Virus record (IMG/VR): IMGVR_UViG_3300010048_000014 | Location: 1-54,049 of that record | Strand: one strand, 5' to 3' | Origin: a virus | Lineage: Duplodnaviria > Caudoviricetes | Length of the DNA: 54,049 nt | Shown: one piece after another, positions 1-14,111 of the stretch | Numbering within the stretch: the first letter of the stretch is position 1 | Layout of the letters: every line of letters starts with the position of its first letter | Position numbers and translations under genes: made by a program | Notes under the pieces: model-generated | Database searches by the model: none | The model's input: the letters and a program-made list of their open reading frames with translations, nothing else | Told to the model about the DNA's origin: nothing

Positions 1-175
1 ACGCCCAAGGGACTAGGGTTCCACCGATCCAGCGCACCGCAGGGTCAGGCGATAAGGGTAACAGCCCGCGCCGCGCCTCACATGTGCCTGTAACCGGCCC
101 AGTAAGCCGCTTTGAAAGTCAAAGGCGGGCGACGGCAATATCCAATTCCCAAACAGTAAATCATTTTTATTTACA

Positions 176-208
176 GCCTCGCTAAGTCGCGGGGCGTTTG
201 TCAATTTG
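176..208 (+). promoter_or_regulatory. Repeated leader element, copy 1: GC hairpin (loop TAAGTC) followed by GTTTGTCAATTTG
   Basis: GCCTCGC-TAAGTC-GCGGGGC then GTTTGTCAATTTG; same loop and tail as 1929-1965. Confidence 0.6.
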
Positions 209-252
209 ACCCGCGTGCAGCGGACCTGCACTGCTTACAAGGTAGGTTAATC

Positions 253-1917
253 ATGTCTGATCTAACAAACACCACAGCCGACGCTGTGAACGTATCGGCG
301 CAAGTCGCACTTACCACTAAGTCACAACGCGTCATGGCCGACATCAAAGCGGCGTTGCAAGCGCGCATTGCCTTGCTTTGGGTCGTGACTAAAGAGGAAA
401 GCCGCGCCGAGCGTTACATCGCGCAAGCGGCAAACGCTGCGGCGTATCAGTGCCGCACGTGGGATATTGCGCAGGGACCATGCGAGTTGAGCGGCAAGCC
501 GTTGCAACTCACGCAATCAAATGACCCTAGCGAAATGCTAGGCGTCATCTTGAACAAGTCGCGGCAGACAATGCGTGACGGCGACAGCGACCGTAACGTG
601 TGGATCATGCGTGATCTGCCCGTGTGGCTCGAAGGCATGCCGGGCGCTAGCGTGCTCCGGGCGGTGCGAAATATCGCACTGGCACGGCCGCGCATGGCGC
701 AAAACACTGCGCAGGCTATCGTTGTGATCTCGCCGTCTGGCAAAGTGCCAGACGAGTTAAGTGACCATGCAACGGTTATTGATTGGCCGTTGCCGGACAA
801 AATCGAAATTGCCGCGATCCTCGACGCGGCGATTGCGACCAACGTCAACAAGCTTCCTGAACTTGCGAACCTGACAAACGGCAAACGTGATGCCGCTGTT
901 GACGCGGCGTTAGGTTTGTCCGAGGCGGACACGCAAAACGCCTATTCCACATCGCTGGTGAAGTGTCGGACCATTGATGCGTTGCTAGTGGCGAGCGAGA
1001 AAAAGCGCGTCATTAGTAAAGAACGAATAATGGAATGGTACGACCCAATTGCAGGCGGTCTCGACAGCGTAGGCGGTTTGGAAAACCTAAAGGCGTGGTT
1101 GTTGACCATTGCTGATGCATGGTCCGAAAAGGCGCGCCGATACGGTTTGAAACCGCGTAAAGGCTGCATGCTTGTCGGCGTTCCGGGTTGCGGCAAATCC
1201 CTAACGGCGAAAGCAATCGCGACGGCGTTAGGTATCCCGCTTATCCGGCTTGATCTGGGCGCGCTCAAAAGCAAGTTTGTCGGCGAGAGCGAACAGAACA
1301 TTCGCAAAGCGTTCCGCGTTATCGAAGCCATCGGCCGTTGCGTCGTTTGGTTAGACGAAGTGGAAAAAGCGCTTGCGGGCGCGACAGACGGGAGTGCGGA
1401 TGGTGGCGTATCAACCGACGCACTTGGTTCAGTGCTGACTTGGATGCAAGAGCGGCAAGGCGAAGCGTTCGTGATCGCCACTGCTAACGACGTGTCGAAA
1501 CTGCCTCCAGAACTAATGCGCAAGGGCCGGTTTGACGAAGTGTTTTTCGTGGACCTGCCGACAGTCTCAGAGCGTAAGTCAATCTTGCAAGCTTCACTGC
1601 GCACTAACGGGCGCGCGGCAGACGGTCTTGATTTGGACCGCGTTGCTAGCGCGTGCTTTCGTGATGCCGCGCAATACGGCTTTACGGGCAGCGAAGTTGC
1701 GGAGCTTATCCCGACGGCAATGTATGCCGCATACGCCGACAACGCGCGCGCGATCACCACAGCTGACTTGCTGGCGGCTGCGGAACAAACCGTCCCGCTC
1801 GCAAAAACTGCAAGTGACAAAATCGCAGGCTTGCGGCAATGGGCAATCGGCAAGGCGCGGCTAGCAACAGCGGCCGAGCAAGTAACAGCGCAGCAATTAA
1901 GCGGCGTTGAAATTTAA
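253..1917 (+). CDS. AAA+ ATPase, Ycf46-like (degenerate N-terminal AAA-like domain plus intact C-terminal AAA domain)
   Basis: Walker A GVPGCGKS, pore loop SKFVGESE, Walker B VVWLDEVEK, sensor-1 ATAN, SRH LPPELMRKGRFDEVFFVDLP. Confidence 0.9.
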   Translation: MSDLTNTTADAVNVSAQVALTTKSQRVMADIKAALQARIALLWVVTKEESRAERYIAQAANAAAYQCRTWDIAQGPCELSGKPLQLTQSNDPSEMLGVILNKSRQTMRDGDSDRNVWIMRDLPVWLEGMPGASVLRAVRNIALARPRMAQNTAQAIVVISPSGKVPDELSDHATVIDWPLPDKIEIAAILDAAIATNVNKLPELANLTNGKRDAAVDAALGLSEADTQNAYSTSLVKCRTIDALLVASEKKRVISKERIMEWYDPIAGGLDSVGGLENLKAWLLTIADAWSEKARRYGLKPRKGCMLVGVPGCGKSLTAKAIATALGIPLIRLDLGALKSKFVGESEQNIRKAFRVIEAIGRCVVWLDEVEKALAGATDGSADGGVSTDALGSVLTWMQERQGEAFVIATANDVSKLPPELMRKGRFDEVFFVDLPTVSERKSILQASLRTNGRAADGLDLDRVASACFRDAAQYGFTGSEVAELIPTAMYAAYADNARAITTADLLAAAEQTVPLAKTASDKIAGLRQWAIGKARLATAAEQVTAQQLSGVEI

Positions 1918-1928
1918 CAAATAACTTT

Positions 1929-2000
1929 GCCGCGCTCTAAGTCGGGCGCGGTGTTTGTCAATTTGCAATGGTGCAAGCTGACTTAAACCGAAAGGGGTTT
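1929..2000 (+). promoter_or_regulatory. Repeated leader element, copy 2 (hairpin, GTTTGTCAATTTG, RBS GAAAGGGGTTT)
   Basis: GCCGCGCTC-TAAGTC-GGGCGCGGT then GTTTGTCAATTTG; RBS before ATG 2004. Confidence 0.6.
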
Positions 2001-2003
2001 AAC

Positions 2004-2816
2004 ATGCGCGTTTCTACAATTCGACCCGGAACGCTGGTCACGCTAAAAACTTCGATCAGTGGCAATGTTCGCTACTTCAAAACAAATGTGGAAGCCGAAC
2101 ATTTGCTAGAGAACGGACAGACTAGCGAAGCGGAGTGGAATACTCGCCGCATCACGCTAGACAAAGCGGAACATGAGCTTGCGGTAAAAACCCGGAGCCG
2201 GTGCCGCTCGCTTATCACTGGCTGTTGCACCGTGGGCAACTTCCTGATTTGCCCCGTGGCAAATCGCGACAATCTGGAAAAGGCTATCGCGGAGGCGGAG
2301 GCATTAGCGCGCGATTTTAACGCTAAGGCAAACGTAACGCGGATTAGCGTTTACCCGGCTATGACGGAAGTTGCGCCCGACGACTTGCGTTGGATGCAAC
2401 TTATTAACAGCGAAGTCCGCGACTTGTTGGATGCAATGGCGCAAGGCGTCAAAAACCTTGACCCGGATGCAATCCGCAAAGCTGCAAACACTGCGCAGTC
2501 GGTCGGCAAATCTTTGACGCCGGAAGCGCAGGAACGCTTGCAAGCTTCGATTGATGCCGTGCGCAAACAGGCGCGCGCCATTACCAAGGCGGGCGAAACT
2601 GCGGCCGTTGAAATTGATGCGACCGTGTTCAAACAACTCGAAGAAAGTCGCACCGCGTTTCTGGAAATTGGCGACGACGTGCAAGCGCCAGTCGCCGCGC
2701 CGGAGGCGGAAGGCCGGGGCGTTGACTTTGACGCCGTGCAAGTCGGCCGCGACTTAGCCGAAACAATGAAACTAGAAGACGTGCAAGCCGCGATTGATCG
2801 AGGCATTGATCTGTAA
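2004..2816 (+). CDS. Hypothetical, largely alpha-helical protein; probable partner of the AAA+ ATPase
   Basis: Long ORF; start reassigned to ATG 2004 behind AAAGGGGTTT RBS. Confidence 0.8.
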   Translation: MRVSTIRPGTLVTLKTSISGNVRYFKTNVEAEHLLENGQTSEAEWNTRRITLDKAEHELAVKTRSRCRSLITGCCTVGNFLICPVANRDNLEKAIAEAEALARDFNAKANVTRISVYPAMTEVAPDDLRWMQLINSEVRDLLDAMAQGVKNLDPDAIRKAANTAQSVGKSLTPEAQERLQASIDAVRKQARAITKAGETAAVEIDATVFKQLEESRTAFLEIGDDVQAPVAAPEAEGRGVDFDAVQVGRDLAETMKLEDVQAAIDRGIDL

Positions 2817-2821
2817 ACTAT

Positions 2822-2892
2822 TGCGGCGGGACGTTTGCTCCGCCGCATTTGTCACTTTGCAACGTGACGGTAACGCAACAGGAAAGGGGTTT
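2822..2892 (+). promoter_or_regulatory. Repeated leader element, copy 3
   Basis: TGCGGCGG/CCGCCGCA stem, TTTGTCACTTTG, ACGCAAC, GAAAGGGGTTT. Confidence 0.6.
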
Positions 2893-2895
2893 ACC

Positions 2896-3240
2896 ATGCC
2901 ATGCAATACCAGATTAAAACCGCGCCAGACAATTCAGGAACGCGCGGCGGAAGTACGAAAAGCAGTGGACGCGCTAGCGCTAAAACTGCTTAAGCGACAA
3001 GTGCGCCCCGTTGTCGATAAGACCACGGGAGCGATCACGTTCGCGGGCTGGAGTGAAACGGATCGCGACGGCATCACTGACGCGTGCGCGTATCGGCGTA
3101 TCAAGACGCAAGGCAATGCACTGGTGCAAGCTGAGATCGCACGCGCCGAGGCAATGGCGGGTAGGCCAGTCAACACCAAGGCGCTAGCGCAGGGCGTTCA
3201 CTCACATGACGGGGGAGTGTCATGGCACCACGGGCATTAA
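2896..3240 (+). CDS. Hypothetical protein with His-rich C-terminus (HSHDGGVSWHHGH)
   Basis: ATG 2896 behind GAAAGGGGTTT RBS. Confidence 0.75.
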   Translation: MPCNTRLKPRQTIQERAAEVRKAVDALALKLLKRQVRPVVDKTTGAITFAGWSETDRDGITDACAYRRIKTQGNALVQAEIARAEAMAGRPVNTKALAQGVHSHDGGVSWHHGH

Positions 3241-3363
3241 ACGCGCTTTGGCAATGGGAGGAAACCAACCAACCATTGGAAGCAAAGCGCCAAATCGCCG
3301 CGCGACTTGCGGCTGTTGTCCTGACCTACCGTTATCGGAAAGTAGAAAATTGACTGCACTAAG

Positions 3364-3424
3364 CGGGGCGCATGCGCCCCGTCATAGTGTTGTCAACCGA
3401 CAGCACGCAACCGAAAGGGGTTTT
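3364..3424 (+). promoter_or_regulatory. Repeated leader element, variant copy 4
   Basis: Palindrome CGGGGCGCATGCGCCCCG, TTGTCAA, CAGCACGCAAC, GAAAGGGGTTTT. Confidence 0.5.
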
Positions 3425-3427
3425 GCT

Positions 3428-3700
3428 ATGCGAATAGGAACAACGGCAAACGAGTGGCAAATAACTTTTAATGGCAAGTCCTATAAAATAACCCGGCGTC
3501 ATTATCCCGCGCTCTACAAAGCGGCGACCGTGTACGGTCCCGCCGTTAGCACGCCGCCAAAAGACTACTGGCGCGTAGCTTCCGACGGTCGCACACATTG
3601 GCGCGACTTAGATGAAACAGGCGTAACCTATCAAAAAGTTTTGAAAGCGTTCAAAGATCACATCGGCGAGACAATGCTCTCCGATTGCATTGGCGCTTAA
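3428..3700 (+). CDS. Hypothetical protein
   Basis: ATG 3428 (MRIGTTANEW) behind GAAAGGGG RBS. Confidence 0.7.
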   Translation: MRIGTTANEWQITFNGKSYKITRRHYPALYKAATVYGPAVSTPPKDYWRVASDGRTHWRDLDETGVTYQKVLKAFKDHIGETMLSDCIGA

Positions 3701-3706
3701 CTTATT

Positions 3707-3780
3707 GCCGCGCGTTTCGACGCGCGGCGTTTGTCACTTTGTGACCGTGACGCAATCATGCGGCACGATTGAAAGAGGTT
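3707..3780 (+). promoter_or_regulatory. Repeated leader element, copy 5
   Basis: GCCGCGCGT-TTCG-ACGCGCGGC then GTTTGTCACTTTG; GAAAGAGGTT RBS. Confidence 0.6.
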
Positions 3781-3783
3781 GCT

Positions 3784-3861
3784 ATGGACTATCAGCCTTT
3801 GATTGACGCGCTAGCAATGTGCCTTTGCATTGCTTTCGCTGTCGGGATCGGTGCGCCATGA
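3784..3861 (+). CDS. 25-aa hydrophobic peptide (MDYQPLIDALAMCLCIAFAVGIGAP)
   Basis: Hand-translated; good RBS; ATGA overlap with next gene. Confidence 0.55.
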   Translation: MDYQPLIDALAMCLCIAFAVGIGAP

Positions 3862-4073
3862 AAAAGATCATCTTGGAAAAGCGCCGCGACTATTGGGGCG
3901 CTTGGCTATACGGCATTGATGGCATGCCGGAAGATGTAGAGTTGCCGTTGCCGTGGTCGCCGCAAGCGTATCTGATGACAGTTGCGCGCGATATGCGGAA
4001 ACGGTTTCCGGGCGCGCGCCTGCTTTACCGCGACACCTTGGGGCAACTTTCGCAAGTGGCGGAAACGCCATGA
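3858..4073 (+). CDS. Hypothetical protein
   Basis: ATGA overlaps at both ends. Confidence 0.65.
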   Translation: MKKIILEKRRDYWGAWLYGIDGMPEDVELPLPWSPQAYLMTVARDMRKRFPGARLLYRDTLGQLSQVAETP

Positions 4074-4438
4074 AACCGGCCGCGCTAATCCCGCGCGACA
4101 TCGCGCAACGCAAGCCGCCTCACGGGGCGGCTTGCAACCGTTGCGGGGTCTGTTGCCTCGTAACCCTATGCGAGATCGGCCGCGCCGTTCACGGGCGCGA
4201 CCGTGGCCCTTGCCCGTCACTGCGCTGGGAGGGCGCGGAGAGTAGCTGCGCCCTTACCCGGCTAGGCCCGCCGCACCTTAACGCGGCGGCGCTTACCTTG
4301 GTACGCGCGGGCGAGGGCTGTGACTGCCGCATAAACGGGGAACCGACTAACACGGCATTCCACGCCTACCAAGACAACCGCGACAAGGAACGCGCCGCCG
4401 AGATCAAAGCCGCGCGCAAGCTTTGGGGATTGGATTGA
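4070..4438 (+). CDS. CxxCxxCC cysteine-cluster protein (YkgJ-like, putative Fe-S or Zn binding)
   Basis: CNRCGVCC...C...CPSL...C motif; ATGA overlap. Confidence 0.65.
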   Translation: MKPAALIPRDIAQRKPPHGAACNRCGVCCLVTLCEIGRAVHGRDRGPCPSLRWEGAESSCALTRLGPPHLNAAALTLVRAGEGCDCRINGEPTNTAFHAYQDNRDKERAAEIKAARKLWGLD

Positions 4439-4540
4439 TCCGCTACGGGACAGGACGGCGCAAGCCGCCCTGCCCCGCGTCCGCCTCGCCTGATGGCGCG
4501 CGGGGCGCGCAATGGACGGCGGCAAATCCCGCGCCATAAA

Positions 4541-4638
4541 CTAAACGAGATTTCTAACCCAAACGTAATTTCTAACGTAAAACCTAATGCAAACATAAAA
4601 TCTAAACGAAAAACCTAACCCAAACGTAAAACCTAACG
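4541..4638. repeat. AT-rich, G-poor array of CTAA-anchored imperfect repeats
   Basis: CTAA units spaced 13/18/12/18/13/18 nt; 4541-4577 recurs nearly intact at 4602-4638. Confidence 0.75.
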
Positions 4639-4642
4639 CTAT

Positions 4643-4673
4643 TTGCCTTTCCAGGCGTAGTTTGATATACTAC
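4643..4673 (+). promoter_or_regulatory. Sigma70-type promoter overlapped by palindrome GTAGT-N7-ACTAC
   Basis: TTGCCT (4643-4648), 17 bp, TATACT (4666-4671). Confidence 0.6.
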
Positions 4674-4678
4674 ATGAC

Positions 4679-4765
4679 ATGGAAATCTTTCTACTGATTG
4701 TCATTGCTTATCTGGTGCTATGCGTCGCAACACAGCTAGCCGTTATTTCTGACCGCAATCGCTAG
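4679..4765 (+). CDS. 28-aa single-TM peptide, probably leaderless
   Basis: MEIFLLIVIAYLVLCVATQLAVISDRNR; ATG 7 nt after the -10 box. Confidence 0.5.
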   Translation: MEIFLLIVIAYLVLCVATQLAVISDRNR

Positions 4766-5031
4766 CCGCCGGGTGATTTCGGCTTGTTCTGTTCTTCGTA
4801 ACCTTCGGTTCGGCTTTTGCGCGCAGCGCCGATCTGCACCCATTCTGCGCATCGATCCTGACTGTCGATTACCCCACGCACTAGCTCGCAACTACCGATC
4901 AGGGGGCTGGCGGGATAGTACATATCGCAATTACCACAGCGGCGCGGACCATCGGCCCTACGATAGTTGACGGACGCCTTAGAGACTTTCTCTTTGCCTT
5001 CCATGGAGCGCCACAGGCTATAACCGGACAT
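4762..5031 (-). CDS. HiPIP-like small 4-Cys iron-sulfur protein
   Basis: KASVNY...CGNCDMY...GSCELVRGVI...CAEW resembles HiPIP Cys spacing; no Tat signal. Confidence 0.6.
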   Translation of the reverse strand: MSGYSLWRSMEGKEKVSKASVNYRRADGPRRCGNCDMYYPASPLIGSCELVRGVIDSQDRCAEWVQIGAARKSRTEGYEEQNKPKSPGG

Positions 5032-5356
5032 CCCAATCTTCCGGCGTCATAAACGATGGCAGCATACCAGCTTCCTTCAGCGCTTGCACCCTCTCTTCTT
5101 CGCGCTTCTTTTGGGCGCGATAGCGGCTGTTGATGATCCCCAGCCACTCCCGTAGCTCTAACTTAGGCTCCACTGGATCGACCTTCGATTGAGGGCGCGG
5201 CCACTTGCCGAAGATCGCCCTGAACTTGTGACAGACCCAGCCCCACTTGTAGCCCTTGTGCTGTGCTATCCATAACAGACCTGCATAAGTTTCGCGCGGA
5301 TCGCCGTTCTTCACCTTCAATTCAATCAGCCCGTTGTGCGAGAGCTTGCGCGACAT
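5018..5356 (-). CDS. Stand-alone protein resembling the C-terminal domain of phage SF2 helicases
   Basis: YAGLLWIAQHKGYKWGWVCHKFRAIFGKWP motif; start reassigned to ATG 5356. Confidence 0.6.
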   Translation of the reverse strand: MSRKLSHNGLIELKVKNGDPRETYAGLLWIAQHKGYKWGWVCHKFRAIFGKWPRPQSKVDPVEPKLELREWLGIINSRYRAQKKREEERVQALKEAGMLPSFMTPEDWDVRL

Positions 5357-5829
5357 CACAGCACCACAATTTTTGTCAGCGCGACTGGACATTGGTAGCA
5401 AGAAAACTCGTAACCTTTTTTTGTGTCCATGGTGGTTACAGTCGTCCACGACGGACGAGTTCTAGCCATAACTTGCACGGCATGGCTCATGGCTTGGTTC
5501 ACGATGTAATAACCGTCAGGTTCAGCCGCGTCTGATTTATCAATGCGATCTAAAAATACCGTGGGGAACGGATATTGATCGATAAACTCTAACTGTTTCC
5601 ACTTAACTTCGATCTTCCACCAACGAACACTATCTACCATTTGCAGTAGAATATCAGCATCATCACCATAACCATTACGCTGCTCGAAACTTGGTCTGAT
5701 CCGGAGTGGGTTAACCTGAACTAAACAATTCCCTTTGCTATGAAGATATTGAGCAACACGAAATACAGCCGCCCACTGTTTAACGACAGCTTCGCGAAAC
5801 CGTTGTTCCTCATCCACGGCGAACCTCAT
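5356..5829 (-). CDS. PD-(D/E)xK superfamily nuclease
   Basis: DDADIL...IEVK catalytic pattern. Confidence 0.6.
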   Translation of the reverse strand: MRFAVDEEQRFREAVVKQWAAVFRVAQYLHSKGNCLVQVNPLRIRPSFEQRNGYGDDADILLQMVDSVRWWKIEVKWKQLEFIDQYPFPTVFLDRIDKSDAAEPDGYYIVNQAMSHAVQVMARTRPSWTTVTTMDTKKGYEFSCYQCPVALTKIVVL

Positions 5830-6289
5830 AACCGCATTTTGGACAGATGATGCCTTTGTACTCCGGGCTGCGGCGCGGTTTCATAAATGCGCTGCGCTCG
5901 ACAGCGTGCTCAACATTGGCTCGACCATCGATCACAAACAGCTTGAACTCTTTGTCTGTTAGTTTGGCGAGCTTACGAGCGCGATGCGCCAATCCCTTAT
6001 CGATCCCGTTATCCCGAAGCGTAGGTAACGGGTTTTGCCGGTGCCCGTTTGGGCGTCCTTCCGGGGCGCGGTCACCACGACCGTTCGCCATCATCTCCCC
6101 AACCTTCCGTTCCGCCCGGACCCGTATTTCGAAGGCGTTTGCCTCTAAATTCTTGTTTTTAGCCTGCTTGGCATAGGCTTTGAGTACAAATGCCGCATCA
6201 CGTATTTTTTCCACTTCATCAATCGATCTAGCGATCTCCAATGCCCGACAGGCAGCGTCGTAATTCACCAGAACAATCTCGTTAGGCAT
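5810..6289 (-). CDS. Helical phage protein resembling the N-terminal domain often fused to phage DNA methyltransferases; C-terminal CxxC
   Basis: YDAACRAL...IDEVEKIRD...AYAKQAKN...EIRVRAERKVGEMM; no MTase motifs present. Confidence 0.65.
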   Translation of the reverse strand: MPNEIVLVNYDAACRALEIARSIDEVEKIRDAAFVLKAYAKQAKNKNLEANAFEIRVRAERKVGEMMANGRGDRAPEGRPNGHRQNPLPTLRDNGIDKGLAHRARKLAKLTDKEFKLFVIDGRANVEHAVERSAFMKPRRSPEYKGIICPKCGYEVRRG

Positions 6290-6310
6290 GTGCAGGAACC
6301 TCTAGTCTGA

Positions 6311-6512
6311 GTTACCGGCTTGGTATCCTCTCTTCCTCGCCAAGCCTCTTTCTTTATTGTGGCTCAGAGGTTTAGCGAAGTAAGAGGAGCAAGCCTCTTG
6401 GTAAGTAAGAGCACTAATCTTACGCACAGCAGGGACCAGCCCCGGAAGAGAGGGGTTACCTCTGCTCCGGGGTATGCCACCGCACCAGAGCGCTCTGGCA
6501 GTGGCGGTTTTC
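6311..6512 (+). ncRNA. Candidate structured RNA, antisense to the leftward operon
   Basis: Four successive stem-loops; G-U pairs favour the + strand; last hairpin followed by GTTTT. Confidence 0.35.
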
Positions 6513-6665
6513 GTCTTGCAGGGCTTGATTGGAACCGGCAGTTAGGATAAGAGTTCTGCCAATTCAGCCTCGATGTGCCTGCAAGCTAGCATCGAGTTTC
6601 GCGGCGGTCTGCCCCACCCGGTCAGATCGCCGCAATCTTTTTGTAATCCTCCTGACGTAATTCCG

Positions 6666-7022
6666 TCAAGTGGAAAGTGGTCGGATGGTGACGCGGCATT
6701 GCTCCGGTAGGTCGTCCGCCCATAAGACGTGGATGCTCTCGATGTGCTGCGGCCCGTCGTCGGAAACTGCCCCACGGGATACGCAATAATCCAGCAGGCA
6801 CTTCAGTATGTTGTCCGGGTCTTTTCTCATAGTGGTGCGACGGATATGGATTGTAATCTCGTAGGCCCCAACAATGGTTTCGTATTTATTTTGTCGATTA
6901 ACCATCAGGCGCTTGTCGTTGTCCTTACGCCAGTTTTCAGCTTTCTGATGCCCCCAGTAATCGACCCGCCGCGTCGTGTTCACTGACGGGGGCAGGGTCA
7001 GGTCTAATACCGTATCACTCAT
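6666..7022 (-). CDS. rusA: RusA-like Holliday junction resolvase
   Basis: LPPSVN, KDPDNILKCLLD, VSDD motifs. Confidence 0.85.
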   Translation of the reverse strand: MSDTVLDLTLPPSVNTTRRVDYWGHQKAENWRKDNDKRLMVNRQNKYETIVGAYEITIHIRRTTMRKDPDNILKCLLDYCVSRGAVSDDGPQHIESIHVLWADDLPEQCRVTIRPLST

Positions 7023-7242
7023 CCGCTAGCTCTGCCCCCTTGCCTACCGTGCAGCGGACAGCCCACACCGCCGACCCCTCATGGAATAGGGCAGCAAGGG
7101 CATAGGGGCTTGCGCCTATTTGTTTTAATTGACGGCAGGCAGCAAACAGCGGGCGCTGGGAACGCCCCTGTACGGGGCTTCCCGCCACCTTGTAATCGAA
7201 GACGCCCTTGCGGGAGGGCTTAATAATAACCCGGTATTCCAT
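7015..7242 (-). CDS. Hypothetical protein
   Basis: ATG 7242 coupled to the GcrA stop; overlaps RusA start. Confidence 0.6.
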   Translation of the reverse strand: MEYRVIIKPSRKGVFDYKVAGSPVQGRSQRPLFAACRQLKQIGASPYALAALFHEGSAVWAVRCTVGKGAELADE

Positions 7243-7763
7243 CACACCGCCCTCTTGATGACGAAGCCTCTGCCGCTGGGATAGCGCAAACCGTGGTAGG
7301 CAACTTTCTTGTGGATAACGCAATACGGGGAGAGATCATCCGAACAGGGGGCACCACAGTAGCCGAAGTCGGCAGTCTGGGGGTCGCCAATCGGCCATTT
7401 GCACATCCCCGGCCCCAGATCGAGGATGGTGACCTTGCCCCCCTCCCGGTAGCTAGTCTTGGCAGCTACGGAAGGTTCCGGCATCGGGATGTCCTTGACC
7501 GTCACCGGGTTCCCATCGGATCGCTTCTGGCCCAAGATTGCCTTAATTGACTTCCGCCCCACCGTACCCCGGTTCTCGCCATGGGTCATCGGGGCAGGGT
7601 TCTTGGGACGCGGTACCCGCATCAGCCCCAATCGCCAGACAAGGCCCATGATAGAACGCCGGGACTTGCCCAGCTTGTTCCCAATCCAGAGCGCCGAATA
7701 GCCCTGCATCCAATAGTCGCGCACCACTTTCTTGTTCTCATCAGTCCATAAGTCGCCGCGCAT
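7242..7763 (-). CDS. gcrA: GcrA cell-cycle regulator homolog
   Basis: N-terminal WTDE..W.QGYSA..IG..LG.SR..IMG.V.RLGL HTH; C-terminal CKWPIGDP..FGYCG...PYC..H; start uncertain (7763 or 7790). Confidence 0.9.
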   Translation of the reverse strand: MRGDLWTDENKKVVRDYWMQGYSALWIGNKLGKSRRSIMGLVWRLGLMRVPRPKNPAPMTHGENRGTVGRKSIKAILGQKRSDGNPVTVKDIPMPEPSVAAKTSYREGGKVTILDLGPGMCKWPIGDPQTADFGYCGAPCSDDLSPYCVIHKKVAYHGLRYPSGRGFVIKRAV

Positions 7764-7780
7764 CAGTAAGACTTTCTCAT

Positions 7781-7981
7781 TTACTTGCATTTGGGACAAT
7801 CCATAGAGCACCCGGTGCTCTGCCACCAATGAAGGATCAACTGGACCGCCGTTTCAGTTGGTGGACGCTGCTTGCGATGCCTCAACGGGATTACAGCCAT
7901 CCGCCGTCGGTGTCCGTTAGGACACTCAAACGTGGCTTTGTTGTTGCCGTGGTAGGCGATAACTTTGTGCCTGCACATCAT
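7781..7981 (-). CDS. Small putative Zn-binding protein
   Basis: CPNGH and CPKC motifs; first gene of leftward operon. Confidence 0.5.
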   Translation of the reverse strand: MMCRHKVIAYHGNNKATFECPNGHRRRMAVIPLRHRKQRPPTETAVQLILHWWQSTGCSMDCPKCK

Positions 7982-7993
7982 CGCACAACCCTC

Positions 7994-8021
7994 TTGACAG
8001 TGTAGTTAGACACGCTACACT
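7994..8021 (+). promoter_or_regulatory. Sigma70-type promoter in divergent region with palindromic operator candidate
   Basis: TTGACA (7994-7999), 16 bp, TACACT (8016-8021); AGTGTAG-N9-CTACACT inverted repeat. Confidence 0.65.
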
Positions 8022-8062
8022 AACAACGTCAATCACGCAACAACAAACCAAAGGGGTTTAAT

Positions 8063-8200
8063 ATGGCACGCAAAGCAGCAGCAGTCCCGGCATCCAAGGC
8101 AGAAATCGGCACTATCGGCTACAGCGGCGTGGATATCGCTCAGAACGCGGTTCGTCCGCTTTTAGAGGGGTTGCGCAAGTTGATGCAGGTTGACGCTTAG
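8063..8200 (+). CDS. 45-aa hypothetical protein
   Basis: Hand-translated MARKAAAVPASK...; AAAGGGGTTT RBS. Confidence 0.6.
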   Translation: MARKAAAVPASKAEIGTIGYSGVDIAQNAVRPLLEGLRKLMQVDA

Positions 8201-8208
8201 GGGTCGCC

Positions 8209-8334
8209 TAATCTCGGCCGGTGAACGCGGGCATCGGTAGACACAACACAAAGGTAGCCTGCTACAGCGGTGGCGATACCCCGGCGAAAGCCAGAGCATA
8301 GGACCGCTAAAGGCTATCAACCCGCGTAAGATTA
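8209..8334 (+). ncRNA. Candidate structured RNA (nested multi-stem rod with GAAA tetraloop)
   Basis: TAATCT/AGATTA, ACGCGGG/CCCGCGT, GGTAGCCT/AGGCTATC, AGCGGT/ACCGCT, GGC-GAAA-GCC. Confidence 0.5.
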
Positions 8335-8346
8335 TGGAGGCTTACT

Positions 8347-8529
8347 ATGAGCTACAGGTTTCGGAAGCACCGGAAGAAGCCAGAGACGTTGGACCTTACG
8401 AGCGCGAAGGATCGCGTCCTAGTTTTGCGCGCTTATCACAACTTGCTGTCCGAAGGCATGAGTGAGGAAGACGCCAAACTAAACGCCACCGCCTACGTCT
8501 TCGAACATTGGGACGAACTGGTGAACTGA
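8347..8529 (+). CDS. Hypothetical protein
   Basis: GGAGG RBS; 60 aa. Confidence 0.7.
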   Translation: MSYRFRKHRKKPETLDLTSAKDRVLVLRAYHNLLSEGMSEEDAKLNATAYVFEHWDELVN

Positions 8530-8575
8530 TGAAACGCGGCCCGCCGTCTGGACAACTGCCAAAAGGGGAACTCCG

Positions 8576-9307
8576 ATGCCGACAATCGATAACGCTGATC
8601 TCACCAAGGCAGCGAAGGAAATTCGCGGCCTGATGAAAGAGTGGGTCAATAACGCTCTCAAGATCGGAGCCGCGCTGGCACGCGCTCGCCTAGTTTTTGC
8701 CGAAAGATCGGCCGCGAAACCGATTAGGCGAAGGGGCGACCATCTACCGGGGTGGTCACAGTGGCTTAAGGCCGAAGTCAATCTCAGCGCTGACTACGCT
8801 TCAAGGATGATCCGCTGCCACGAACGGTTGTCTGGCAGACCCGGCGCTGAAAATCTCAGCGTCAAGGTTATGAAGTTATTGGCTCAGGAACAGACGCCTG
8901 ACGAAGCGATTGCGGAGGTTATTGATCTGGCTAAACGGCGATCAGTCAAGCCACGCGAAGCCAAGGAAGTCGTCAAGAAACATTTACCCAAGCCAGCGGA
9001 AGCCAATCAAAAAGCACGCGATACCGGTAAGCCGCATCTGGCAAGCGACGGCAATTATTACTTCGGTCACACCAAGGAAGAGGCAGAGGCCGTAGAACAA
9101 CAACGCACGCTGATCTACGGTGTTCGCCGTGCCGTCAAAGCGCTCTCTGACGTGGCAGACGAAATTACGCCGCTGCAATTTCTATCCAAGGCGCATTTGC
9201 ATCAGCTATGGAACCGCGACAACGAACGTGAATTAGAAAACGCAACGCGGTGGCTCGCTGAGCTGTCGGAGCAGTGGGAGAAACGCTATGCCCAACGCAC
9301 CGCGTAA
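8576..9307 (+). CDS. DUF3102-like phage protein
   Basis: IGAALARAR...GWSQWLKAEVNLSADYASRMIR pattern. Confidence 0.65.
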   Translation: MPTIDNADLTKAAKEIRGLMKEWVNNALKIGAALARARLVFAERSAAKPIRRRGDHLPGWSQWLKAEVNLSADYASRMIRCHERLSGRPGAENLSVKVMKLLAQEQTPDEAIAEVIDLAKRRSVKPREAKEVVKKHLPKPAEANQKARDTGKPHLASDGNYYFGHTKEEAEAVEQQRTLIYGVRRAVKALSDVADEITPLQFLSKAHLHQLWNRDNERELENATRWLAELSEQWEKRYAQRTA

Positions 9308-9785
9308 AATACAGCAACTGGTCACAAGCACCCTGCGACGGGAAGCGGCCAATCGAGGCCGCACTACCCTGAATAATATCGTGACTATGGTTTACTCCCA
9401 GATCGAGCGGCGCGGTGGTTATCAGGCGTTCGGTATCGGGCGCGCTGATATAGTGATGGCAGTGCGGAGCATTATTGCCCGCGAAGCCAAATCGCAGTTG
9501 ATTAAAACCCTGCCGGAAGACAGCTTTCGCGCTGTTCTGAACAACGGTGCTCCACCCGAACTTCGCGCCATTCTGCCGCGATTACCACAGTGGATCGCCA
9601 TCGAGAAAGGCAGCGATGCGCAGTGGGTGCCGTCATTGCAGGCGACCTACCAAGAATGGCTAGCCAATGCCGAAATGAAAAACATACTCGCTAACCAAAC
9701 TATCCGCAGGGCTGATTTTTCCGTTAACGTCGCGGATTATTTGAAGCAGTACGGACTAACCAGCCTCTCTGAGGTTCTTGATTAA
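9288..9785 (+). CDS. Hypothetical protein
   Basis: Overlaps upstream gene and abuts downstream gene in operon. Confidence 0.75.
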   Translation: MPNAPRKIQQLVTSTLRREAANRGRTTLNNIVTMVYSQIERRGGYQAFGIGRADIVMAVRSIIAREAKSQLIKTLPEDSFRAVLNNGAPPELRAILPRLPQWIAIEKGSDAQWVPSLQATYQEWLANAEMKNILANQTIRRADFSVNVADYLKQYGLTSLSEVLD

Positions 9786-10583
9786 ATGGCACTGACCGAT
9801 AAACAACGTGAACTGCGCAAGGGTCACTTCACAGGATCAGAAGCGAACATCCTGATGAACGGTGATCCGTACAAGATCAACGATCTGTGGCTCATGCACA
9901 CAGGCGATCCGCGCTACGTCGAACCGGACTTTAGTGACAATTGGCCGGTTCGATTGGGGGAGGTTACCGAAGAGCTAAACTTAGAGTTTGCTGCCAAAAA
10001 GTTTGGCCCGGTAACCAGAAAGGGGGAGGTCGTCGTTGGTGTCGGCAGTCTCGATTGGACTGCTGCCACCCTCGACGGCTGGTTGCACGCCCGATCCTGC
10101 CCAATAGAAGCTAAGTGTGTAAACCTTCGATATAACATCACTGACGTTATCGCGCGCTATCAGCCCCAACTCCACTGGCAGATGATGGTGTGCAAGGCGC
10201 AAGAGTGCGCGATCTCCGTTATCATCGGCGGGGCGGAACCGATAATCGAGTTTATCCCGTATGATCGCAAATATGGCCGGGAGCTATGGTCGCGGGCGGC
10301 AGCGTTCTGGCTGTGCGTCCGCAGCAGGACACCTCCGGTAGAGCTACCGGCAGCCCCACCTCCGCCAGTGCTTGCCGTCAAAGAATATGACATGGGCCAA
10401 GACCCGAAATGGAAGATACTGGCTGATGGCTGGATACAGGCTTACGGCGCTGCGGAAATAGCCAAGAAGGCTGAACGAGAGATCAAGGGTATGGTCCCGC
10501 CTGACGCCAAGCTGTGCTTTGGCCACGGCATCACTGTCACCCGCAACCGCGCAGGCGCGCTATCCCTAAGACAGGCGACGTGA
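9786..10583 (+). CDS. YqaJ/lambda-exonuclease-family recombination nuclease
   Basis: RKGHFTGSEA, ATLDG, IEAKC, YQPQLHWQM motifs; next to Bet. Confidence 0.9.
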   Translation: MALTDKQRELRKGHFTGSEANILMNGDPYKINDLWLMHTGDPRYVEPDFSDNWPVRLGEVTEELNLEFAAKKFGPVTRKGEVVVGVGSLDWTAATLDGWLHARSCPIEAKCVNLRYNITDVIARYQPQLHWQMMVCKAQECAISVIIGGAEPIIEFIPYDRKYGRELWSRAAAFWLCVRSRTPPVELPAAPPPPVLAVKEYDMGQDPKWKILADGWIQAYGAAEIAKKAEREIKGMVPPDAKLCFGHGITVTRNRAGALSLRQAT

Positions 10584-10593
10584 GAGAAGCAAA

Positions 10594-11676
10594 ATGAACA
10601 AGCTTGTTGTTAAGAAAACCGATGTCTCAATCACCGCTTCGTGGACCACAGAGGAAATCCAACTCATCAAGGAAACCGTCTGCAAAGGCGCGTCCGACAA
10701 CGAGTTCAAGCTATTCCTCTACCAAGCCAATAAAACCGGCCTTGATCCGCTCGCCCGACAAATCTACTCGATCAAGCGCCGGGAGCGCCGCGAAGATGGT
10801 TCGTGGGCGGATGTTCGCACCATCCAGACTGCAATTGACGGATTTAGAGTAGTCGCCGAACGGCACGGCAAATACGCCGGTCAGGTAGGTCCGTTCTGGT
10901 GCGGCCCGGACGGTGTCTGGCAGGACGTCTGGGTGAACGCCGAACCGCCCGCCGCTGCCCGTATTGGCGTTCTCCGTAGCGATTTCAAAGAGACGTGCTG
11001 GGGCGTAGCCCGCTTCGACGCCTACGCCCAGAAGAAGGATAACCGCCCAATCGCCATGTGGGCAAAGATGGGTGACGTGATGGTCGCCAAGTGCGCAGAA
11101 GCGCTAGCCCTAAGAAAAGCGTTCCCGCAGGACTTGTCTGGTGTCTATACCCACGACGAGATGCAGCAGGCCGGGCCTACGGAAGAGATAATTGAGCCTG
11201 CGCCCGCAATCGAGCCGCCCAGTAAGGCAGCAGAAGCGCTAGTCGATATCGCCTCGCAAGAACAGGAATACAGCAAGCCGGAACAAATAGCGGACGACAT
11301 CGCGGCGTCCAAGGTTGATTGGAAAGCCTTCGGGGAGAAAGTGCTTGAAGCCTATCGGACAGGCGCGGACCTGACACCAGAGCAACTTGCCATGCTTGAC
11401 CGCATGGAGCAGGAAAAGCCGAGGTCTTACCAAAATCTGATGAAAGCGGCCGAAAAGGCGCGTTCTAAACCAGAGACGCCGCCGCAGCCCAAGCCGGAAG
11501 ACGATCCTGACGCTTACCGGGTTTGGCTGATCGATCAGATGTCGCGCTTCGACACGGCGGCAGGGTTGAACGACTTCTTCGCTGCCCAGCAGAAGTTATG
11601 GGAACCCTGTTTCCCCCCGGATATCGAAGACTGGGACAACTTGTTTAAGGAACGCGCAGCAGAGCTAGGGAAATGA
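10594..11676 (+). CDS. bet: Phage recombination protein Bet (RecT/Redbeta ssDNA-annealing family)
   Basis: GLDPLARQIY, IQTAIDGFRVVAER, WAKMGDVMVAKCAEALALRKAFP, GVYTHDEM. Confidence 0.92.
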   Translation: MNKLVVKKTDVSITASWTTEEIQLIKETVCKGASDNEFKLFLYQANKTGLDPLARQIYSIKRRERREDGSWADVRTIQTAIDGFRVVAERHGKYAGQVGPFWCGPDGVWQDVWVNAEPPAAARIGVLRSDFKETCWGVARFDAYAQKKDNRPIAMWAKMGDVMVAKCAEALALRKAFPQDLSGVYTHDEMQQAGPTEEIIEPAPAIEPPSKAAEALVDIASQEQEYSKPEQIADDIAASKVDWKAFGEKVLEAYRTGADLTPEQLAMLDRMEQEKPRSYQNLMKAAEKARSKPETPPQPKPEDDPDAYRVWLIDQMSRFDTAAGLNDFFAAQQKLWEPCFPPDIEDWDNLFKERAAELGK

Positions 11677-12098
11677 TCGAGTTCGCTTGCGCAAAACGAA
11701 AGGCCAAGTTCGCGGGCGAGGTCGGCATCTTCGGCATCGATCAGGTATCGGACGAGGAGATCAAGCAGTTACCGGATGATATGGTCTGGGCCGAAATCAC
11801 CGTGCCGCGTAACCTTAAACAGATAAGATATCTGTGGGCCATCGCGTCGAAACTAGCAGAGGGTGGCGTCTATGAAAGTAAAGAGGACGCCATGGATGAC
11901 TTAAAGATACGCGCACGGTTCGCGCGCTGGGGGGTGGAGAATGAGCGCACCATTGTTGTTCCTAGATCGCTTTCTCGACAACGTGGCGATGTTCTGCATC
12001 GGCTTATCAACAGGATTGTTTATATCGTGTGCAGCGATCTTCTCCCACATATCAAAGAAGCGGACCTTCGGGCCGAAATCGAAGAGATGGTGACTTAG
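11673..12098 (+). CDS. Hypothetical protein (DUF1367/NinB-like, tentative)
   Basis: PRNLKQIRYLWA...VPRSLS pattern; position after Bet. Confidence 0.6.
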   Translation: MIEFACAKRKAKFAGEVGIFGIDQVSDEEIKQLPDDMVWAEITVPRNLKQIRYLWAIASKLAEGGVYESKEDAMDDLKIRARFARWGVENERTIVVPRSLSRQRGDVLHRLINRIVYIVCSDLLPHIKEADLRAEIEEMVT

Positions 12099-12130
12099 AT
12101 GAGACTGCATGGCGATTTTGCGAGGTTTGC

Positions 12131-12529
12131 ATGACACCGCGCCGGGAGTTCTCCGCAGCAACACGCCGCGCCGCATGGGAGCGGGCGAATGGTTGCTGCG
12201 AAGGCAGGGTGATGTCCACTTCCCTAAGCGAAGGCGGCTTCTGGAAAATGGTTAGGTGCAATGCGCCACTGGACCACGGCAATTTCCATTACGACCACAT
12301 CGATCCCGATTTCTTCGGCGCTGATGACCGCGCAGAACTGGAGAACTGCCAGCTATTGTGTTGGGTATGCCATAAGACGAAGACCAAGCGAGATATGAGA
12401 GGCATCGCCAAGTCCAAGCGGATACAGGACAAGCGCATCAAGGCGCGCAAGCCCAAGGGGCGGCCACTGCCGGGGACCAAGCGCAGCGGCTTGCGCAAGC
12501 GCATGGATGGAACGGTAGAACGCCGATGA
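12131..12529 (+). CDS. HNH endonuclease
   Basis: RREFS...CEG...C...HYDHIDP...NCQLLCWVCHKTKT. Confidence 0.85.
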   Translation: MTPRREFSAATRRAAWERANGCCEGRVMSTSLSEGGFWKMVRCNAPLDHGNFHYDHIDPDFFGADDRAELENCQLLCWVCHKTKTKRDMRGIAKSKRIQDKRIKARKPKGRPLPGTKRSGLRKRMDGTVERR

Positions 12530-12612
12530 CAGAGTTCGACCATTTCATAAGCGGTGTCATCTTTATCTTTGGTGCAATGGCGTTGTTTGCGTTGTTGGCA
12601 ATTTTTCGGTGA
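12526..12612 (+). CDS. 28-aa single-TM peptide
   Basis: MTEFDHFISGVIFIFGAMALFALLAIFR; ATGA overlap with HNH. Confidence 0.55.
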   Translation: MTEFDHFISGVIFIFGAMALFALLAIFR

Positions 12613-12630
12613 AGCAAAGGAGGATGGGAA

Positions 12631-13110
12631 ATGAGTGAACTTGGACAAATACCGGAAGCCATGATGCCGTATGAGGCACCGCCAGTGCCCACGGTGGTGC
12701 AAGACCCGGACAAGCAGGCCGCTATCCGCGCAGCCACCTACTACGACCGCGTGGAAGCGGAACGGGAACAGCACCGTCAACTGCTAGAGCAGGCCAAGAT
12801 AGCGCTAGAAATTCAGATCACACGAAACGGCGATCTGCAAAAGCTGTTAGACGCAGAACGAGACCGCTATGCGTTGATTGAGAGAGCCTATCACGACGCC
12901 ATTCAAGATCGCGCCGATCTGGAGGCGATACTGGCAGACGAGAGAGATCACCATGAAGACCGCGCGTCACGTCTTGGTCGCTTTGACTTTAGCCGCTTGC
13001 GCAAGCGTAACGGCAAACATCCCAAGCGCAATGGCGACACCGTGTCTGACAATGCAGGAAGCACGGTCGAAGTGGCCATCGACCCACATGTACTGGCATC
13101 AGGGTCCTGA
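12631..13110 (+). CDS. Coiled-coil hypothetical protein
   Basis: AGGAGG RBS; heptad-rich. Confidence 0.7.
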   Translation: MSELGQIPEAMMPYEAPPVPTVVQDPDKQAAIRAATYYDRVEAEREQHRQLLEQAKIALEIQITRNGDLQKLLDAERDRYALIERAYHDAIQDRADLEAILADERDHHEDRASRLGRFDFSRLRKRNGKHPKRNGDTVSDNAGSTVEVAIDPHVLASGS

Positions 13111-13426
13111 CGGCCGCTGTTGGGACAATCACGCAAAGGGCGCGGAGCACTACGACCCGCGCCCACACCTCAAGATGACGCCGCCTCCTGTTCCCAGCAA
13201 CGTGGCAGCGTCACCGCCATCGGAGCTAGAGCGACCAGCCGCCCACGCTCCGGTGGCGGAGTTCTACTACCCAGTGCTGGTGCATGATCGCAGCATGCTG
13301 GACGACTACCATGTGCTGGTCTGGCCGCAGCCGTGGCTCAATCCGGACAGCATTATGCATTGGCCGCTACTGCTTGATGCGGATCGGACGCCATTCACAA
13401 CTTGGAATAAGCGGGTTGGTCAGTAA
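12953..13426 (+). CDS. Putative exported protein or lipoprotein
   Basis: MKTARHVLVALTLAAC signal/lipobox-like; CLTMQEARSKWP...YWH...CWD motif. Confidence 0.6.
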   Translation: MKTARHVLVALTLAACASVTANIPSAMATPCLTMQEARSKWPSTHMYWHQGPDGRCWDNHAKGAEHYDPRPHLKMTPPPVPSNVAASPPSELERPAAHAPVAEFYYPVLVHDRSMLDDYHVLVWPQPWLNPDSIMHWPLLLDADRTPFTTWNKRVGQ

Positions 13427-14054: not shown

Positions 14055-14060
14055 CCAACT

Positions 14061-14090
14061 CAGCCGCCCTCCGGGGCGGCTGTCTTTTTG
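14061..14090 (+). terminator. Rho-independent terminator
   Basis: CAGCCGCCC-TCCG-GGGCGGCTG followed by TCTTTTT. Confidence 0.8.
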
Positions 14091-14111
14091 CCGCAATGCA
14101 ACTTGAGGATT

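Follow-up and report, generated by a model that had tools for sequence, protein, structure and literature searches.

Introduction

The PeSLs of T4-type phages combine a stem-loop with a consensus sigma-70 promoter, and what is reported of them includes a demonstration of both activities (PMC2839356); as described there and in related work, they have consensus -35 and -10 elements with an A/T-rich upstream region and belong to the cassettes of T4-type phages (PMC2839356; PMC4122927). Here, we describe repeated leaders in the complete IMG/VR record IMGVR_UViG_3300010048_000014, a linear sequence of 54,049 bases, estimated to be 84% complete, which we refer to as the window. Relatives run to 73-81 kb, by which about a quarter of the genome would lie outside the record. 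Its source is an uncultured soil podophage of ~55% GC; soil metagenome runs are the only public runs with window sequence. Each leader carries a GC-rich hairpin of free sequence, and in four of the five the hairpin is followed by a fixed 12-base motif, TTTGTCAMTTTG, hereafter the box. They are best classed with the PeSLs, as a version that has no promoter. We propose, tentatively and with slightly less than even confidence, that they are RNA-level intercistronic punctuation, in the form of leaky terminators or stabilizing hairpins joined to a common translation leader, and that they also serve as recombination joints.

As far as PeSLs are described in these reports, the soil phage leaders resemble them in having a stable stem-loop with G.T pairs, in recurring before small accessory genes of unassigned function, and in supplying the junctions of indels and replacements between close relatives. 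They differ from the PeSLs so described in lacking a -10 element, in having a TTGTCA that lies too near the start codon in some copies, and in the fixed 12-base box that abuts the hairpin; the host and the type of phage are unrelated as well. A further parallel is the early region of T7, whose RNase III sites, in the account given of them, are hairpins before the first and between successive genes of a co-directional operon at the genome end (PMC4858673). The leaders have the same placement, and one of them (type B, below) has an irregular helix of ~19 bp that may compare with the sites so described. The others (type A) differ from that account in their stems of 9-10 bp followed by a U-rich box; the sequences are unrelated, and cleavage is putative here. 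With the SAS and ESAS elements of Cluster K mycobacteriophages, to the extent that their report characterizes them (PMC3203893), the leaders share an extended ribosome binding site (RBS) a few bases before the ATG, a single orientation, a restriction to nonstructural genes, and an inverted repeat with a variable spacer that often precedes; function is unassigned in both. The ESAS inverted repeats are given as a conserved 17-bp consensus (PMC3203893), whereas the stems here are free and covarying and it is the linear box 3' of the hairpin that is conserved. Intrinsic terminators inside operons are similar in having a GC-rich hairpin after a stop codon, U residues, and often an upstream complementary A tract; the leaders differ in that their tail is only UUUG followed by UCAMUUUG, which is invariant though terminators need no fixed tail, and in that type B has no tail.

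Leaders of the left operon

A sequence-only reading of the window had picked out repeated leaders before genes that it called early, a label that is an assumption of that reading. The repetition is real, and all five hairpins (176-195, 1928-1953, 2822-2847, 3363-3382, and 3706-3729) were recovered. The box, which had been read as TTTGTCA(A/C)TTTG after the stems, has exactly four matches in the 54 kb, all on the + strand, at 197, 1954, 2848, and 3730; the reversed pattern, used as a control, has none. Allowing up to 2 mismatches yields 16 matches against 6.8 expected, a count reached in 0 of 100 shuffles. The box adjoins the 3' end of a GC-rich hairpin in all four window copies, and the hairpin begins 6-11 bases past the upstream stop codon or, in copy 1, follows a noncoding stretch instead. 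Leaders of this design, which we call type A, contain in order a stop codon, a short A/T-rich stretch, a GC-rich hairpin of 7-10 bp, the box, a weak second hairpin, a linker often with CGCAAC, the extended Shine-Dalgarno sequence AAAGGGGUU, and AUG, with a length of about 80 bases per unit. The leaders of the window and their parts are as follows.

155-252, + strand: leader 1, type A, with an A/T-rich flank at 155-175 and a hairpin at 176-195 (GCCTCGC/GCGGGGC, loop TAAGTC)
197-208, + strand: box of leader 1, TTTGTCAATTTG, with the palindrome GTCAAtTTGAC at 200-210; weak RBS AAGGTAGG at 239-246
1918-2003, + strand: leader 2, type A, with a hairpin at 1928-1953 (loop TAAGTC) and the box TTTGTCAATTTG at 1954-1965
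1957-1982, + strand: second hairpin of leader 2, GTCA..TTGCA atgg TGCAA..TGAC
1983-2003, + strand: RBS hairpin of leader 2, with AAAGGGGTT at 1991-1999
2817-2895, + strand: leader 3, type A, with a hairpin at 2822-2847, the box TTTGTCACTTTG at 2848-2859, ACGCAAC at 2873-2879, and an RBS at 2883-2891
2851-2868, + strand: second hairpin of leader 3, GTCAC..GTGAC
3350-3427, + strand: leader 4, type B, a three-tier helix of TTGAC/GTCAA, GCACTA/TAGTGT, and then the GC stem at 3363-3382
3390-3403, + strand: small hairpin of leader 4, TTGTC aacc GACAG, with CAGCACGCAAC at 3401-3411 and an RBS at 3414-3422
3701-3783, + strand: leader 5, type A, with a hairpin at 3706-3729, the box TTTGTCACTTTG at 3730-3741, and the RBS AAAGAGGTT at 3772-3780
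3733-3745, + strand: second hairpin of leader 5, GTCAC ttt GTGAC; a third hairpin lies at 3746-3767

The remaining shared parts were examined in the same way. The RBS GAAAG(G/A)GGTT, reported after copies 2-5, stood up to counting: AAAGRGGTT has five matches against 0.6 expected, one at 8050 and the other four as the RBSs of leaders 2-5, and all of them precede + strand starts (2004, 2896, 3428, 3784, and 8063). The loop TAAGTC is indeed common to copies 1 and 2. ACGCAAC, which the sequence-only reading had also listed, does lie within the leaders, but by itself it is not enriched (9 matches against 9.9 expected) and is notable only for its position. The box can pair with the RBS over 4 bp only.

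All five leaders fold better than shuffled sequences on the + strand (z from -2.1 to -4.6), leader 1 with -30.7 kcal/mol and z -2.55, and leaders 2 to 5 with z of -4.60, -2.38, -3.39, and -2.12, respectively. A covariance model, R1, built from type A copies recovered from the window the four boxed leaders and nothing else, with scores of 47.8, 61.6, 61.1, and 64.5 bits for leaders 1, 2, 3, and 5. It misses 3350-3427. Leader 4, which had been taken for a variant of the same element at 3364, has neither the box nor a U run, and it forms a helix of ~19 bp with internal loops; we treat it as a second, boxless leader type (type B).

Conservation and covariation in relatives

The leaders are conserved in a small clade: they occupy the same gene junctions in six related contigs (L005, L060, L061, L062, L064, and L069). 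Among 43 IMG/VR relatives, the box was found only in L005, whose ATPase is 93% identical; a pattern scan of metagenome contigs added the other five. The exact box-plus-RBS pattern matched 10 stretches in IMG/VR, 2 of them the L005 contig and 8 without a hairpin, and 15 stretches in metagenomes, 7 of them real loci; two of these loci, L067 and L068, duplicate the L005 contig. The remaining 8 IMG/VR and 8 metagenome matches have no hairpin and look like chance. A covariance model search across related phages was the check that the sequence-only reading had suggested; R1 detected no type A leader in 29 more distant relatives or in Catdawg.

In total, 17 type A copies stand at orthologous junctions, and in 17/17 a hairpin lies directly 5' of the box. 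The box departs from its consensus in one copy each as TTTGTCACTTTA, TTTGCTCATTTG, and TTTGGCAATTTG, the last found by R1 only. Twelve of the relatives' copies were found with the box as bait and one, L064 953-1005, independently by the structure model. The free variation of the stems beside the box is not built in by such a search. In the alignment of 15 type A copies from 7 contigs on which the covariation figures are based, 96.5% of the stem cells are paired, against 72.1% in shuffles, and 0 of 500 shuffles reach 96.5%. Both sides have changed in a compensatory manner at 7 of the 10 stem pairs, and sliding the partner by 1-3 columns lowers pairing to 31-61%. The earlier observation that stem structure is kept while stem sequence varies thus holds formally once relatives are added. 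The stems of orthologous leaders can be unrelated in sequence, as at 3706-3729 of the window and its counterpart in L060, with the box fixed, and the gap between hairpin and TTTG is 0-1 nucleotides (nt) in 15/15 aligned copies. In 23 stem cells the pair is G.U or U.G. The opposite strand would have an A.C mismatch in each of them, so it is the sense strand, and hence the transcript, that is under selection.

The type B leader has relatives of its own. In L007, a phage with 57% identity in the ATPase, leaders with unrelated GC stems have the type B flanks CACTAAG and TCATAGTG. The type B lower stem pairs in 6/6 sequences, with two compensatory changes and one G.U, and the lower stem and loop bases are kept between the window clade and L007. 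Related pieces that had been reported at 13716-13741 and 8034-8059 are present. The first belongs to a further leader of the window.

13686-13760, + strand: related leader, with a hairpin, GTTTGACAAC at 13716-13725, CAGCACGCAAC at 13731-13741, the RBS GAGGAAGG, and ATG at 13761

This leader has a fold z of -2.08 and no match to R1; its CAGCACGCAAC is identical at 3401-3411 and 13731-13741. Leaders in more distant relatives follow the same design in other sequence: the stop codon is followed by a GC hairpin of free sequence, then by a small hairpin that is conserved, and finally by a phage-specific extended RBS. The small hairpin of L035 and L047 is paired in 11/11 copies with its loop kept, and three of its five pairs have compensatory changes, from two independent events. 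At 40 distinct short junctions between genes 1 and 2 or genes 2 and 3 in relatives, a perfect-stem hairpin of -10 kcal/mol or lower was found in at least 22, and five more have a bulged one; at least 13 of the 40 have no hairpin and a gap of at most 45 nt. Because of these short hairpin-free junctions, the first three genes are basically one operon, with hairpin leaders as optional insertions.

Each of the related phages L043, L029, L035, L007, and L038 has its own extended RBS consensus of 10-13 nt before many genes (TCAATGGAGAAC, TCAAAGGAGATCAA, GATTGGAGACAAA, and CGAAGGAGTCGAA are examples), and L043 shows an extended RBS without any hairpins.

Promoter elements

An ordinary sigma-70 promoter with the TTGTCA of the box as its -35 is ruled out by the missing -10 and by the distance from box to ATG. 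When 16 copies are anchored on the box, no base is conserved where a -10 should lie. The stretch from the second hairpin to the RBS, in which such a -10 would end, is not the same in the window as in L005. In L069, the ATG comes 37 nt from the start of the box, so the start site would lie past the conserved RBS. The earlier statement that no properly spaced -10 follows is borne out: among the box sites, only TTGTCA-17-AATCAT at 3731 has a promoter score of 9/12, and promoter-like sites in the window are not above chance (4 found against 6.9 expected). Other arrangements were also rejected. A TTGCAA-type hexamer as -35, an extended -10 TGTCAMTTT, and a -35 in the hairpin loop have no consistent partner element by eye. 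A reading of the extracytoplasmic function (ECF) type, with AAC in the 5' flank and GTC in the box, has a spacing of ~31 nt, which is too long. None of the FNR/CRP, IHF, CtrA, and Pho boxes or GcrA/GANTC sites seems to fit.

The hairpin promoter that the sequence-only reading had listed among its options is disfavored, since the loops have 4-8 bases and vary in sequence and no RNA polymerase or sigma gene was detected in the window or in five relatives' records. Hairpin promoters of the N4 type have a stem of 5-7 bp and a 3-base loop and are read by a virion RNA polymerase. The leaders do not fit this type: the loops have 4-8 bases, the largest open reading frame (ORF) is 1195 aa, and PF00940 was not found in five relatives' records, although that search had no positive control. 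Among the window ORFs, Pfam and PHROGs searches detected no RNA polymerase or sigma domains, although a very divergent sigma would be missed. Neither PF04542 nor PF00940 was found in the records of the five relatives, three of which are 90-95% complete, the PF00940 search having been made without a positive control. No promoter was seen in the window for the left operon or the long - strand structural block. A single strong promoter is present, with its own leader.

7994-8021, + strand: the only strong sigma-70-type promoter in the window, TTGACA-16-TACACT, 10/12, canonical
to ATG 8063, + strand: leader after the 7994 promoter, with a putative start at G8028; begins GTCAATCACGCAAC...AAAGGGGTTT

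With the start placed at G8028 from the usual spacing of 7 nt, this leader has the same order of elements as the type A leaders from GTCA onward. The parallel suggests that GTCA marks the start of a leader proper and that what lies upstream (the promoter at 7994, the hairpin and TTT in type A) may be punctuation. The context of the 7994 promoter, CTCTTGACA, recurs in L062, and CTCTTGCCA is found at the likely L007 promoter (8670).

Terminator likeness and the second hairpin

A score of the d'Aubenton-Carafa type was computed for 211 + strand hairpins. The type A hairpins and their tails rank 2, 3, 5, and 9 of 211, with scores of 15.4 (leader 5, rank 2), 2.6 (leader 2, rank 3), -1.1 (leader 3, rank 5), and -25.3 (leader 1); the terminator at the end of the middle operon, at 14061, ranks 1/211 with 17.9. 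The type A scores are those of weak terminators. Four relatives (L021, L027, L029, and L039) carry at this junction a hairpin whose U5-6 tail lies only ~25-30 nt before the ATG. Pairing of an upstream A tract with the U tract is a feature of terminators, and 11/17 type A copies have such pairing: GTTTGT is matched by an A-rich tract (as a rule ACAAAC or ACAAAT) on the 5' side, which extends hairpin 1 by a lower stem of 5-6 bp.

Past the first hairpin, the type A leaders form a weak second one, the 5' arm of which lies in the box (GUCAM) and the geometry of which differs between copies. A partner for the 4-nt GTCA arm is found at most 30 nt away in 14/17 copies, whereas shuffles have a mean of 1.8 and a maximum of 7/17, and the copy in which the arm is changed to GCTCAT has a matching ATGAGC downstream. 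Since the second hairpin starts in the box, the RNA must cross the box, which fits read-through or processing and not downstream initiation. The RNA-level element (processing or antitermination) that the sequence-only reading had proposed is strengthened by the covarying stems, the sense-strand G.U pairs, and the box-spanning hairpin; these make no choice among cutting, termination, and read-through.

Gene cassettes and recombination joints

The genes of the left operon are as follows.

253-4438, + strand: left operon, genes 1-7
253-1917, + strand: gene 1, AAA ATPase, 554 aa (PF00004, 1.4e-29; phrog_8638, 7e-163), with 43 related IMG/VR loci
2004-2816, + strand: gene 2, 270 aa, function unassigned (phrog_11021, 7e-40)
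2896-3240, + strand: gene 3, 114 aa, N terminus MPCNTR (phrog_11784, 5.5e-29); stays after gene 2 in relatives
3428-3700, + strand: gene 4, 90 aa, accessory; L005 is without it
3784-3861, + strand: gene 5, 25 aa, accessory
3858-4073, + strand: gene 6, 71 aa, accessory
4070-4438, + strand: gene 7, 122 aa, Cys-rich, the conserved last gene of the operon
3237-3350, + strand: 114 bases that are not in L005 and contain most of a small ORF, 3222-3353

Gene 7 has no leader of its own, its start overlapping the stop of gene 6. A homologue of gene 2 adjoins the ATPase in every relative. The trio of ATPase, 270-aa protein, and 114-aa protein is a conserved module of unassigned function, present as a unit in each of the 43 related IMG/VR loci; more distant versions, likewise with the gene 2 homologue beside the ATPase, occur in Mycobacterium Corndogvirus phages (Catdawg genes 95-97). 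The 114-aa protein mostly starts MPCDTR.

Accessory genes are gained, lost, or replaced at the leaders among the six related contigs, and homology breaks at or inside the leaders; the suggestion of recombination joints with exchangeable cassettes is thus upheld by differences in gene content. Before gene 1, the window has a shared A/T-rich flank and a type A hairpin, L005 has a third kind of leader (type C) joined to gene 1, and in L062 a type C leader and a type A leader enclose an extra gene; the flank 155-175 of leader 1 is common to L005 and L062, where a different leader or an extra gene follows. In blastn alignments, L005 3-3263 corresponds to window 1-3236 and L005 3265-3344 to window 3351-3430. 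Window 3431-4068 (gene 4, leader 5, and genes 5-6) is absent in L005, which has 23 bases there; at this position L062 carries three other genes, which come with a type A-like leader of their own. In L060 the orthologue of leader 5 is followed by a different gene, unrelated to genes 5 and 6, and in L064 genes 2 and 3 are separated by a leader and an additional gene. Contigs from three soil runs break off at 155, 180, and 3727 and join 3216 to 3703, in each case at a leader; the sides of these joints are short and low likeness was allowed, making them hints only.

The crossover points differ from case to case, which argues for homologous exchange between repeats and not for site-specific recombination. 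The leaders would be the sites of this exchange because the units are similar repeats of ~80 nt, and the RecE/RecT and RusA proteins of the phage would be its obvious agents. In integrons, attC sites are acted on by the integron integrase with a fixed crossover at the GTT core. An attC array does not fit here: there is no tyrosine recombinase among the scanned ORFs, and the window, L005, and L062 have their junctions at different points of the leader.

Possible functions of the leaders

The arrangement suggests a model in which 253-4438 is a single co-directional operon, transcribed as polycistronic RNA, and the five units are its composite intercistronic leaders, acting as sense-strand RNA. 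Hairpin 1 and UUUG would work as a weak intrinsic terminator or pause, so that read-through is attenuated at each successive leader, and would also leave or protect a hairpin at the 3' end of the upstream cistron. From GUCA onward, the leaders would share a translation leader of the same kind as that predicted after the 7994 promoter, and homologous recombination could add, remove, and swap accessory genes at the leaders. If this is true, the PeSL idea of regulatory punctuation doubling as joints extends from T4-like coliphages to unrelated uncultured GC-rich soil phages, and the conserved part is an RNA-level signal and not a promoter. The finding does not open a long-standing question; a free-sequence hairpin with a fixed 12-mer is a compact element for studying attenuation or processing in phage operons and the movement of accessory genes.

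Several observations weigh against this model, foremost the short U tract, the U-less leaders of type B and of relatives, and the conservation of GUCAMUUUG, which it leaves unexplained. The U tract is interrupted as well as short (UUUG, then UCAMUUUG); none of the five leaders is picked up by a terminator scan with a threshold of 5 T in 8, and the score of leader 1, given above, is poor. The leaders of type B, type C, L007, L035, and L047 have no U run, and at least 4 T in the next 8 bases follow only 9/22 scored hairpins in relatives; termination therefore cannot be the function common to the whole group. U-richness does not account for the letter-by-letter conservation of GUCAMUUUG, a sequence that must have a reader. 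Since 3/17 copies are without the second hairpin, it is not essential. On the - strand the five leaders fold with z of -0.98, -4.67, -3.54, -2.37, and -4.64, about equal to the + strand in three of the five, so energy alone cannot name the strand. The statistics have limits of their own: the invariance of the box is partly built in, because most of the relatives' copies were box-baited, and the shuffle controls overstate significance, because the copies are related. The promoter of the left operon itself was not found in the contig, which begins 175 bases upstream. Attenuation by termination, polycistronic transcription with read-through, stabilization of the upstream cistron, and a leader function in translation are what we infer from this arrangement of elements.

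The U-less leaders of L007, L035, and L047 fit processing better than termination. It is rather unlikely, in our estimate, that host RNase III (at the long irregular helices) or RNase E (at single-stranded UUUGUCAMUUUG) cuts each leader as in the T7 early region. Such cutting would yield monocistronic mRNAs with a 5' end near GUCA and hairpin 1 at the 3' end. The placement is that of T7, with a site before the first gene and between the following genes, and the predicted primary 5' end at the 7994 promoter, GUCAAUC, falls where the conserved part of the box begins. RNase III sites of the T7 type have the geometry of an irregular helix of about two turns, with an internal loop, between cistrons. 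Type B, with ~19 bp in three tiers, internal loops, and a lower stem conserved with L007 through two compensatory changes, may come close to this; type A hairpin 1, with 9-10 bp, is short for RNase III, and the optional lower stem of 5-6 bp that extends it in 11/17 copies is missing in 6/17. RNase E needs only an A/U-rich single strand, which does not account for a fixed 12-mer. That invariance would suit a true PeSL-type cassette, in which hairpin 1 terminates, the box is a single-element promoter for host core polymerase with a phage factor, and each gene is its own unit, a possibility that we regard as improbable. Repeated leaders before nonstructural phage genes are usually promoters, and PeSLs, as reported, combine a stem-loop with a sigma-70 promoter (PMC2839356). 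The phiEco32-like podophages, in the description available, have a divergent sigma and one 9-base promoter element, tAATGTAtA, with the start 6-8 bp downstream (PMC8948821); the window has SU10-type adaptor proteins, and this single-element precedent (PMC8948821) would place a start 6-8 nt past the box, which leaves room for the RBS in every copy. Set against it are the sigma and RNA polymerase searches described above, with their limit for a divergent sigma, the strict dependence of the box on a hairpin directly 5' of it, its absence from every other operon, the second hairpin, which needs the box inside the RNA, and the relatives with U-tailed hairpins, which leave no room for a promoter before the ATG.

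The box, as a fixed asymmetric 12-15-mer in one orientation, confined to short intergenic gaps and invariant beside drifting neighbors, also has the look of an operator for a sequence-specific protein, be it a DNA roadblock or repressor in the manner of the stoperators of mycobacteriophage L5 or an RNA-binding regulator or antiterminator that reads the box and second hairpin as boxA and boxB are read. Also in favor of an operator are the small hairpin directly 3' of the box and its equivalent in L035 and L047, where the loop is kept, the stem is 100% paired, and 3/5 pairs are compensatory. L5-type stoperators are asymmetric sites found genome-wide and bound by a phage repressor. The box is asymmetric and intergenic but limited to one operon, and no repressor or integrase was recognized in the 54 kb, nor any NusG-like or RNA-binding candidate among the window ORFs; the box may have some likeness to stoperators and to ribosomal boxA. 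An operator is on balance distinctly improbable. A further proposal, which we judge unlikely, is that box and hairpin are the site of a dedicated factor of this lineage (an endoribonuclease, a short-range antiterminator, or a single-element sigma-like protein) by which cassettes are individually switched; if true, the array would be an integrase-free, integron-like cassette system whose leaders travel with genes between soil phages. Finally, the repeats might have no regulatory role, having spread by gene conversion or duplication with the cassettes and been kept for a good ribosome site. The leaders of one genome are more alike than function alone seems to need, and every relative has its own extended RBS consensus; homogenization would have equalized the stems too, yet they diverge with compensation while the box is fixed, and type B flanks are conserved between phages whose ATPases are only 57% identical. 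We consider this highly improbable.

Other features of the window

The remainder of the window is organized in three blocks beyond the left operon.

4445-4478, either strand: perfect 15-bp hairpin where two operons converge; neither strand has a U run, and the - strand folds with -31.4 kcal/mol
5018-7829, - strand: second block, including RusA-like and GcrA-like proteins
8063-14054, + strand: middle operon, including RecE-like, RecT, and HNH genes
14288-53232, - strand: long structural block, with endolysin, tail genes, two SU10-type adaptors, and the large terminase

Because the hairpin at 4445-4478 has no U run, hairpins without a U tail also mark operon ends in this phage. A scan of 1-15000 against Rfam, with E up to 1, gave nothing relevant, and a search for tRNA genes found none. 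Among the public sequencing runs checked, no RNA run contained window 1-4500. A genome scan matched two contigs of metagenome-assembled genomes, from Acidobacteriaceae and Gemmatimonadales, by which no host is assigned.

The window and the 31-kb contig of L005 terminate within 2 bases of each other (window 1-3 and L005 1-5), and L062 and other soil contigs part from the window at about 155-180. An assembly break at a hypervariable or repeated spot is a more likely cause of the shared end than a real genome end.

The GcrA-like regulator (7242-7829, - strand; PF07750, 4e-25) has look-alike clusters in the protein atlas that are mostly viral; as one canonical sigma-70 promoter is visible in 54 kb, it may act on the promoters of the phage. 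At 8201-8346 (+ strand), a GC-rich gap of ~145 nt between two small ORFs is structured in appearance, with no Rfam match at E up to 1. The top terminator-like hairpin of the - strand, at 47058-47086, has a score of 20.9 and the tail TTTGTTGTTGACAC; an ATG at 47042 comes 15 nt after it, with no Shine-Dalgarno sequence visible. Within the structural block, 26773-29067 (- strand) encodes a 764-aa protein with methyltransferase, TPR, and glycosyltransferase-9 matches. Two neighboring genes at 41384-43089 (- strand) match the SU10 adaptor family, which points to a distant link with podophages of the SU10/phiEco32 type.

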